From a virus (taxonomy: Duplodnaviria; Heunggongvirae; Uroviricota; Caudoviricetes): a DNA stretch of 13,632 nucleotides. The translations under genes were made by a program, and so were the position numbers. The stretch is taken from the IMG/VR virus record IMGVR_UViG_2663763282_000004; one strand, given 5' to 3'. The notes under the pieces are model-generated. The model was given only the letters and a program-made list of their open reading frames with translations. It was not told where the DNA came from and did no database searches. Positions 1 through 3,253 of the stretch are shown here, piece by piece. Position 1 is the stretch's first letter, and each line of letters starts with the position of its first letter.

Positions 1-1
1 C

Positions 2-430
<429 letters not shown>

Positions 431-460
431 CTCGGTGGCCAGTTTTTGTTGACCACTTCA
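431..460 (+). repeat. IS terminal inverted repeat (right end)
   Basis: ctcggtggccagtttttgttgaccacttca directly after the OrfB stop; ends in CA. Confidence 0.55.
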
Positions 461-559
461 CTGAAATGCTTCTTCTGCGGCTGCGTTCTGGTTCATGACC
501 AGTTTGTAAATCTCTAACTGGAATTTCTGTTCTTCAGTCATGGGAATAATCTCTGCCAT
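458..559 (-). pseudogene. ORF truncated by the IS insertion (33 codons; stop codon TGA is formed by the last 3 nt of the IS terminus)
   Basis: Minus strand: GGAG RBS 8 nt upstream of ATG at 559; MAEIIPMTEEQKFQLEIYKLVMNQNAAAEEAFQ then TGA = complement of IS end TCA (458-460). Confidence 0.4.
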
Positions 560-807
560 TGTTGGCTCCGTTTATCCGTTAAAAGGGATATCAGTTAAGT
601 TATCCCGTGTAGGGTATAAGCCATTGTCGAGACCACTCATTGAATGGTCTCTGCAATAACCGATGTCTTTCCATCAGTCCGCCACCACAAAGAATCTTTT
701 TTTGCCATAAGGCAGGAGGTTCATCTTTCAGTGGCTGCCAGTGTTATTTCCCCACTTACTGGCTTGGGTTGTTTCGCTGTACTGCCGTTAATTAGTGAGT
801 CCGGGGA

Positions 808-1293
808 TTATTTCAGTTCGTTACCAGGCATTTCTTTTAGCTCTTTCAAATGACAACGATTGAGGCTAAACCACTCCCCGTGCGACCTATAGTTGTAATA
901 TTTTTGGTGCAATTTGGTTTCAAGCTCTCTATCGGCCGGAATCTTTGCAATTAGATTTAGCTTCCCACCACTCATGCGAGATATCTCTGAAATTCGTTTA
1001 TTAACCCTGCGACTAAACCCTATTTTTGTTAGCCCACTATCTTCAGCATGCAGAACGTACACATATGATTTTTGCGAAGCACTGGGTGCGACTTTGTTGT
1101 AATTAATCATGTCAAACATAAAGCCTTGCTTTAGCAAAGTTTCAAAAAAGATAGAATTAACACACCCATTCCTTCTCAGCTCTGCACTTAGCTTGTCAAT
1201 TTCCTCTATGATGTCGCCAGACCCCTTTCCACTTATAAGAAAATCTTGGTACATGCGACCAATTCTTGAGGTAATTTCAACAAAGTTATTCAT
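808..1293 (-). CDS. Cargo protein with C-terminal T5orf172 (GIY-YIG-like, MUG113-type) domain; N-terminal ~75 aa unassigned
   Basis: 161-aa ORF, AGGT RBS upstream of ATG 1293; C-terminal motif series YVYVL...KIGFS...RISEISR...ELETKLHQKY...GEWFSL matches the T5orf172 pattern; locus visibly AT-rich relative to neighbours. Confidence 0.7.
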   Translation of the reverse strand: MNNFVEITSRIGRMYQDFLISGKGSGDIIEEIDKLSAELRRNGCVNSIFFETLLKQGFMFDMINYNKVAPSASQKSYVYVLHAEDSGLTKIGFSRRVNKRISEISRMSGGKLNLIAKIPADRELETKLHQKYYNYRSHGEWFSLNRCHLKELKEMPGNELK

Positions 1294-3097: not shown

Positions 3098-3173
3098 TGG
3101 TGCTGGTTAACGGACTTGAACCGCTACCCATTCGCTTACAAGGCGACTGCTCTACCATTGGAGCTAAACCAGC
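3098..3173 (-). tRNA. tRNA-Thr (anticodon UGU), phage-encoded
   Basis: Manual fold of minus strand: perfect 7-bp acceptor stem GCTGGTT/AACCAGC, D-arm GCTC-CAATGGTA-GAGC, anticodon loop CTTGTAA, T-arm AGCGG-TTCAAGT-CCGTT, discriminator A, encoded CCA. One G-A mismatch at the base of the anticodon stem. Confidence 0.65.
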
Positions 3174-3178
3174 ATGTT

Positions 3179-3253
3179 TGGCGGGACAGCGTGGACTCGA
3201 ACCACGATAAGAAGGTTAACAGCCTTCCGTAATGACCTTTATACGACTGACCC
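3179..3253 (-). tRNA. tRNA-Asn (anticodon GUU), phage-encoded, slightly non-canonical
   Basis: Manual fold: acceptor GGGTCAG/CTGTCCC (one U-U mismatch at 4:68), anticodon arm GAAGG-CTGTTAA-CCTTC, T-arm CGTGG-TTCGAGT-CCACG, encoded CCA; 5 nt from the Thr tRNA. Confidence 0.5.

Follow-up and report, generated by a model that had tools for sequence, protein, structure and literature searches.

Insertion of an ISEc52 element into the DUF2560 gene of a P22-like prophage

The window analysed here is the entire contig L007 (AZQI01000019.1, assembly GCA_000566585.1; 13,632 bp). At its left end, a short minus-strand ORF of a P22-like prophage runs directly into the terminus of an insertion sequence (IS). 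This arrangement raises the question of whether the IS has cut a longer gene and, if so, which one, and whether the prophage is merely interrupted at this point or has lost the genes that should follow. Our analyses support, with high confidence, the simple insertion of a complete ISEc52 into the DUF2560 gene of the prophage.

We first delimited the IS, of which the window contains the following parts.

1-460, plus strand: 3' portion of the IS (460 bases); the contig begins within the element.
2-430, plus strand: C-terminal part of the transposase OrfB (DDE/rve catalytic domain), with a TAA stop codon at 428-430.
434-460, plus strand: right terminal inverted repeat of the IS, ending ...CCACTTCA, as defined by the alignment of four contexts and by its match to the left repeat.

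The first 460 bases represent the 3' end of an ISEc52-like element of the IS3 family, the final base of which is base 460. They are 99.6-99.8% identical to annotated loci of E. coli that carry the PGAP label 'IS3-like element ISEc52 family transposase', and they are identical to the final 460 bases of a complete, 1,250-bp copy found in another assembly (L006, see below). The OrfB fragment matches the Pfam families rve (73.6 bits), rve_3 (45.2 bits) and rve_2 (24.1 bits), as for a DDE transposase of the IS3 family with an rve integrase-core domain. The position of the IS end was established by aligning the window with three ISEc52 copies located in unrelated chromosomal contexts, namely adjoining yciI, within a lacI-family gene and adjoining a group II intron. 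The four sequences are invariant up to base 460 (…GACCACTTCA) and diverge beyond it. In that alignment, the IS end is followed by NNNAAATG in three of the four flanks and by NNNNAAATG in the remaining one. We rejected a target preference of ISEc52 as the reason for this similarity, because the aligned rows were the top BLAST matches ranked by their reach into the window's own flank, which makes it a selection artefact.

The complete copy in L006 provides the features that are missing from the window. Its left inverted repeat, TGAAGTGGTTTACTG..., matches the right end at 21 of the 27 terminal positions, and the element is thus bounded by imperfect TG...CA terminal inverted repeats (left TGAAGTGGTTTACTG…, right …GACCACTTCA) as in the IS3 family. 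The assignment of the IS terminus in the original prediction depended on the existence of such a left repeat. The L006 copy has orfA in frame 1, orfB in frame 3 and an A6G slippery motif (AAAAAAG) at position 324, i.e. the two-frame organization with a -1 frameshift motif of the family; the window itself harbours only the 3' part of orfB. As both ORFs and the A6G motif are present and only 2 bases differ from the ISEc52 copies of E. coli ATCC 25922 and strain 23366, the L006 element looks intact, judging from its sequence. It shares with ISEc52 and IS911 its size of 1,250 bp, its TG...CA repeats (TGAAGTGG...), the orfA/orfB pair with A6G, the rve (DDE) domain and a 3-bp target-site duplication. 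Its end sequences presumably resemble those of IS911. Nothing of substance sets it apart from these elements: it is another copy at a new site.

On the other side of the IS end, the window contains the remains of a gene.

458-559, minus strand: truncated DUF2560 gene, with 33 native codons (461-559) followed by a TGA codon provided by IS bases 458-460.
461-463, no strand: CTG (CAG on the gene strand), right-hand copy of the target-site duplication, of which the window shows one side only.
566-569, minus strand: GGAG ribosome-binding site (Shine-Dalgarno), 6 nt upstream of the DUF2560 start codon, as read from the sequence.

The ORF encodes the peptide MAEIIPMTEEQKFQLEIYKLVMNQNAAAEEAFQ. Its ATG start codon is the complement of 557-559, and its TGA stop codon is formed by the complement of the three terminal IS bases (458-460). 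The right end of the IS (TGAAGTGG... when read on the gene strand) places this TGA in frame directly after codon 33. Thus, the original description of a minus-strand ORF with a start at 559, a good ribosome-binding site and a stop supplied by the IS terminus after 33 codons was correct. IS3-family ends read TGA on the complementary strand. As this holds for every element of the family, approximately one in three insertions in this orientation would stop a host ORF at once, and the IS-supplied stop is unremarkable.

All 33 residues match the N-terminus of the 80-residue DUF2560 protein of E. coli W (WP_000807791.1). The stub matches PF10834 with 52.5 bits (cut-off 25) over profile positions 1-29 of 72, compared with 145.9 bits over positions 1-72 of 72 for the full-length E. 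coli W protein; positions 30-72 of the domain are cut off in the window. The identity of 33 out of 33 residues and the PF10834 score argue that this is not a chance ORF. In all matching P22-like phages and prophages, a 243-bp gene annotated as 'DUF2560 family protein' starts at the equivalent of position 559 of the window, and its product has 80 residues in E. coli W, phage epsilon34 (gp69) and phage HK620 (hkbM). The genes of epsilon34 gp69, HK620 hkbM and Sf6 gp67 occupy the same slot, after the lysis genes and before the small-terminase gene, with the same start codon and ribosome-binding site. In contrast with those phage genes, that of the window is translated for only 33 of its 80 codons. 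The prediction that an IS3-family element had clipped a gene once extending past the insertion, to be looked for in uninterrupted form in related genomes, is thereby borne out. Regarding the function of DUF2560, the PHROGs family phrog_571 is annotated as 'unknown function', the PDB contains no significant relative (best E = 0.14), and our literature search yielded two incidental mentions of the name only.

We also considered that the 33-codon ORF might be a short gene in its own right, complete at this length and simply adjacent to the IS. An IS-free sequence, L014, encodes the same 33-residue product with its own TAG stop codon, and the first 28 residues are shared with a short PHROGs family, phrog_23132 (45 positions). 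However, the stop codon of L014 results from a 27-bp deletion in a normal 80-codon gene whose downstream codons are kept, and phrog_23132 represents the 45-residue variant of HK022, which diverges after codon 27 and runs beyond codon 33. The window follows the 80-residue type through codon 33, and L006 has the other 47 codons after the IS. The lengths in IS-free relatives are thus 80 residues for the P22-like type and 45 for the HK022 type, and we regard the short-gene reading as refuted.

An exact-sequence look-up of the 33-residue product recovered the window contig and L006, a 27-kb contig from a second assembly (GCA_900486015.1); in a comparison of 10,559 nt, it showed no mismatch to the window. 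There, the complete 1,250-bp IS lies in the middle of the contig with CAG on both sides as a 3-bp target-site duplication. Other ISEc52 copies are flanked by 3-bp duplications of CTT and ATC, and such short duplications are as in the IS3 family. The gene resumes directly after the IS at codon 34 (FIGTDELKLELFKIHFQ…TTGA*) and continues for its remaining 47 codons. In silico removal of the IS together with one CAG from L006 yields an uninterrupted ORF of 80 residues. The other IS end and the target-site duplication, both of which the original prediction had proposed to search for, are thus found in this contig.

The same contig identifies the genes that follow. After the remainder of DUF2560 come a 59-codon ORF and the genes for the small terminase, the large terminase, a P22-type portal, the scaffold and the coat protein. 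The corresponding Pfam matches are GP3_package, Terminase_6N/6C, P22_portal, Phage-scaffold and P22_CoatProtein, and the small terminase belongs to phrog_606. This is the P22-type packaging and head module of a Lederbergvirus-type prophage, present in L006 and located outside the window. Head genes thus exist beyond the IS. As predicted, the insertion site is close to the packaging-gene boundary, just upstream of the terminase genes. The expectation of a cos/terminase region was right for the terminase but not for cos: since the module is P22-type, with a GP3_package small terminase and a P22 portal, pac/headful packaging is expected instead. The 59-codon ORF is described as follows.

11498-11677 of L006: ORF of 59 residues with a GTG start codon, phrog_3546, without Pfam match, between DUF2560 and the small-terminase gene.

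This ORF is missing from the same interval in E. coli W, a difference that adds to the signs of mosaicism at the junction of the lysis and packaging modules.

L006 bears on two other explanations of the locus. The junction is at most 460 bases from the contig end and in repeated sequence, where an assembly chimera might arise, but the same junction is found in the middle of a 27-kb contig from an independent assembly, with a complete IS and a target-site duplication. We therefore consider a chimera extremely improbable. The other explanation is that, in the genome from which the window comes, the IS marks a deletion or rearrangement that it mediated. The prophage would then stop beyond the lysis and T5orf172 genes, its head genes having been lost or relocated. 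The contig does end inside the IS, leaving the far side outside the assembly of the window, and copies of the element could recombine with one another: ISEc52-like matches are present in 4,030 of 5,426 complete E. coli genomes, at a median of 2 places per genome and up to 24. Nevertheless, a contig break at a multi-copy IS is a normal outcome of short-read assembly, and in L006, whose junction is identical and which has no mismatch over 10.5 kb, the insertion is simple, its 3-bp duplication is perfect and the full head module is present. A deletion is accordingly rather improbable. Of the proposal that the prophage was interrupted or truncated here, the first part holds, and the second does not agree with the simple insertion and the head genes of L006. 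The genome of the window presumably has the same sequence beyond the IS as L006, and the window ends within the IS because the short-read assembly broke at a multi-copy repeat.

The simple-insertion reading is that a complete ISEc52 (IS3-family, IS911-like, 1,250 bp) transposed into the 80-codon DUF2560 gene at codon 33/34 and duplicated 3 bp (CAG), the gene being situated in the late operon after the lysis genes and before the small-terminase gene. With the IS oriented opposite to the late operon, its right end gives the in-frame TGA after codon 33. What is left is a 33-residue stub, presumably without function, and the other 47 codons, beyond the IS, lack a start codon. As the ribosome-binding site and start codon of the stub are intact, the late transcript probably still directs its translation. 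To reach the packaging and head genes, late transcription from PR' would have to pass through 1.25 kb of IS in antisense orientation. In lambda and P22, RNA polymerase modified by Q is resistant to terminators, and the polarity on the head genes may for this reason be mild. Consensus scans detected only two weak terminator-like hairpins in the direction of late transcription across the IS, about as many as chance alone would give. They detected no promoter directed outward from the IS, either at positions 380-1700 of the window or around the IS in L006. The additional 1.25 kb would also reduce the terminal redundancy of a headful-packaging genome. Placed antisense between the lysis genes and the packaging genes and enlarging a headful genome by 1.25 kb, the IS might act as a functional lock, such that the lysogen would induce and lyse without producing viable particles, or the loss of DUF2560 might expose a packaging-related role of this gene next to the terminase. 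We consider these effects unlikely.

We then analysed the prophage genes next to the insertion, with the following features.

560-807, minus strand: stretch without annotated gene between the T5orf172 and DUF2560 genes, ~97-99% identical in P22-like and HK022-like phages.
808-1293, minus strand: intact T5orf172/GIY-YIG-like gene coding for 161 residues (Pfam T5orf172, 39.2 bits; MUG113, 50.1 bits).

The non-IS segment 461-1320 is 98-99.5% identical to P22-like phages and prophages, including E. coli W and the Salmonella phages epsilon34 and g341c, the latter two being the best phage matches. The T5orf172 gene, which lies between the lysis genes and DUF2560 as an accessory gene, is unaffected by the IS. 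The suggestion that its partner or context had been destroyed is not supported, as the gene is intact and its context is the same in epsilon34 (gp68), g341c and E. coli W. Nor is DUF2560 a dedicated partner of T5orf172: among the 5,426 complete E. coli genomes, 2,552 contain the DUF2560 segment, and only 56 of these also carry T5orf172 (i.e. a place covering at least 80% of the query, T5orf172 included). The slot upstream of DUF2560 is occupied by Rha or KilA-N genes in other phages.

A strong intrinsic terminator is found on the minus strand at positions 1445-1464 of the window, with an 8-bp stem, 6 G-C pairs and a T-run, and it is also annotated in epsilon34. It divides the lysis genes and a conserved 50-residue ORF (1498-1650, phrog_11822) from the T5orf172 gene, a layout that resembles that of an independently acquired accessory gene. 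Two tRNA genes on the minus strand (3101-3173 and 3182-3253; Rfam tRNA, 61.5 and 55.3 bits) lie between the Q antiterminator and holin genes.

Part of the equivalent of the 560-807 stretch is annotated in epsilon34 as a remnant of ST64T orf118. No structured RNA was detected in this stretch at the Rfam gathering thresholds. A comparison of window positions 478-807 with HK022 (L016, 696-1015) showed that the first 27 codons of DUF2560 and ~240 nt upstream are ~97% identical in HK022/HK106-type siphoviruses. After codon 27, the HK022-type ORF diverges to code for an unannotated, 45-residue product of the phrog_23132 type, and the ORF that follows in HK022 is HNH-endonuclease-like by eye. The point of divergence, only 6 codons upstream of the IS site, is a recurrent mosaic joint.

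How widespread is this insertion? No place covering at least 80% of the junction query was found in the 5,426 complete E. coli genomes, and the GTDB representative genomes contain no exact match. The junction was found in a handful of related assemblies, through the look-up of the exact 33-residue product in a protein index. As no complete E. coli genome carries the junction, the insertion is rare and lineage-specific, and it is probably recent. IS elements in late-operon genes are a common route of prophage decay, and the present case shares with other IS-disrupted enterobacterial prophages a mobile element inside a late-operon gene of a resident lambdoid prophage. It differs from them in general in that the remainder of the prophage, i.e. 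the immunity, replication, nin, Q, lysis and head genes, looks intact. For this reason, the locus looks like a single recent hit rather than an eroded remnant.

The look-up also returned seven contigs (L008-L013 and L015) from different phage backgrounds that end within 2 nt of DUF2560 codon 33. We considered an insertion or recombination hot spot at this codon and set it aside as largely a selection artefact, because only products with precisely this sequence are recovered by the look-up. Of the seven contigs, five end in native sequence (…CAAT or …CAATT) and not in an IS, which points to assembly-graph forks. In the other two, isolate contigs L012 and L013, the sequence stops at …TTTCAG, and an IS could be concealed at the same site. 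Lastly, L014 (positions 141-260; Logan SRR32676728) has its 27-bp in-frame deletion right after codon 33. The deletion creates the TAG that gives the same 33-residue product, and the downstream codons (LFKIHFQSGG...) are kept. This deletion may represent either a true, independent lesion or an artefact of k-mer assembly.

In summary, the locus represents an ordinary case of insertional knockout, of a kind already known, involving a well-known IS and a well-known prophage type, and its relevance beyond correct annotation is small. The 33-codon ORF should be labelled as a fragment of a DUF2560 pseudogene that ISEc52 has disrupted, and the contig end, which reflects an assembly break at a repeat, should not be taken for the boundary of the prophage. 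The strain offers a natural knockout of DUF2560 in a P22-like prophage that otherwise looks intact, and it could be used to ask whether DUF2560, which is widespread among E. coli genomes (2,552 of 5,426), is needed for phage production.
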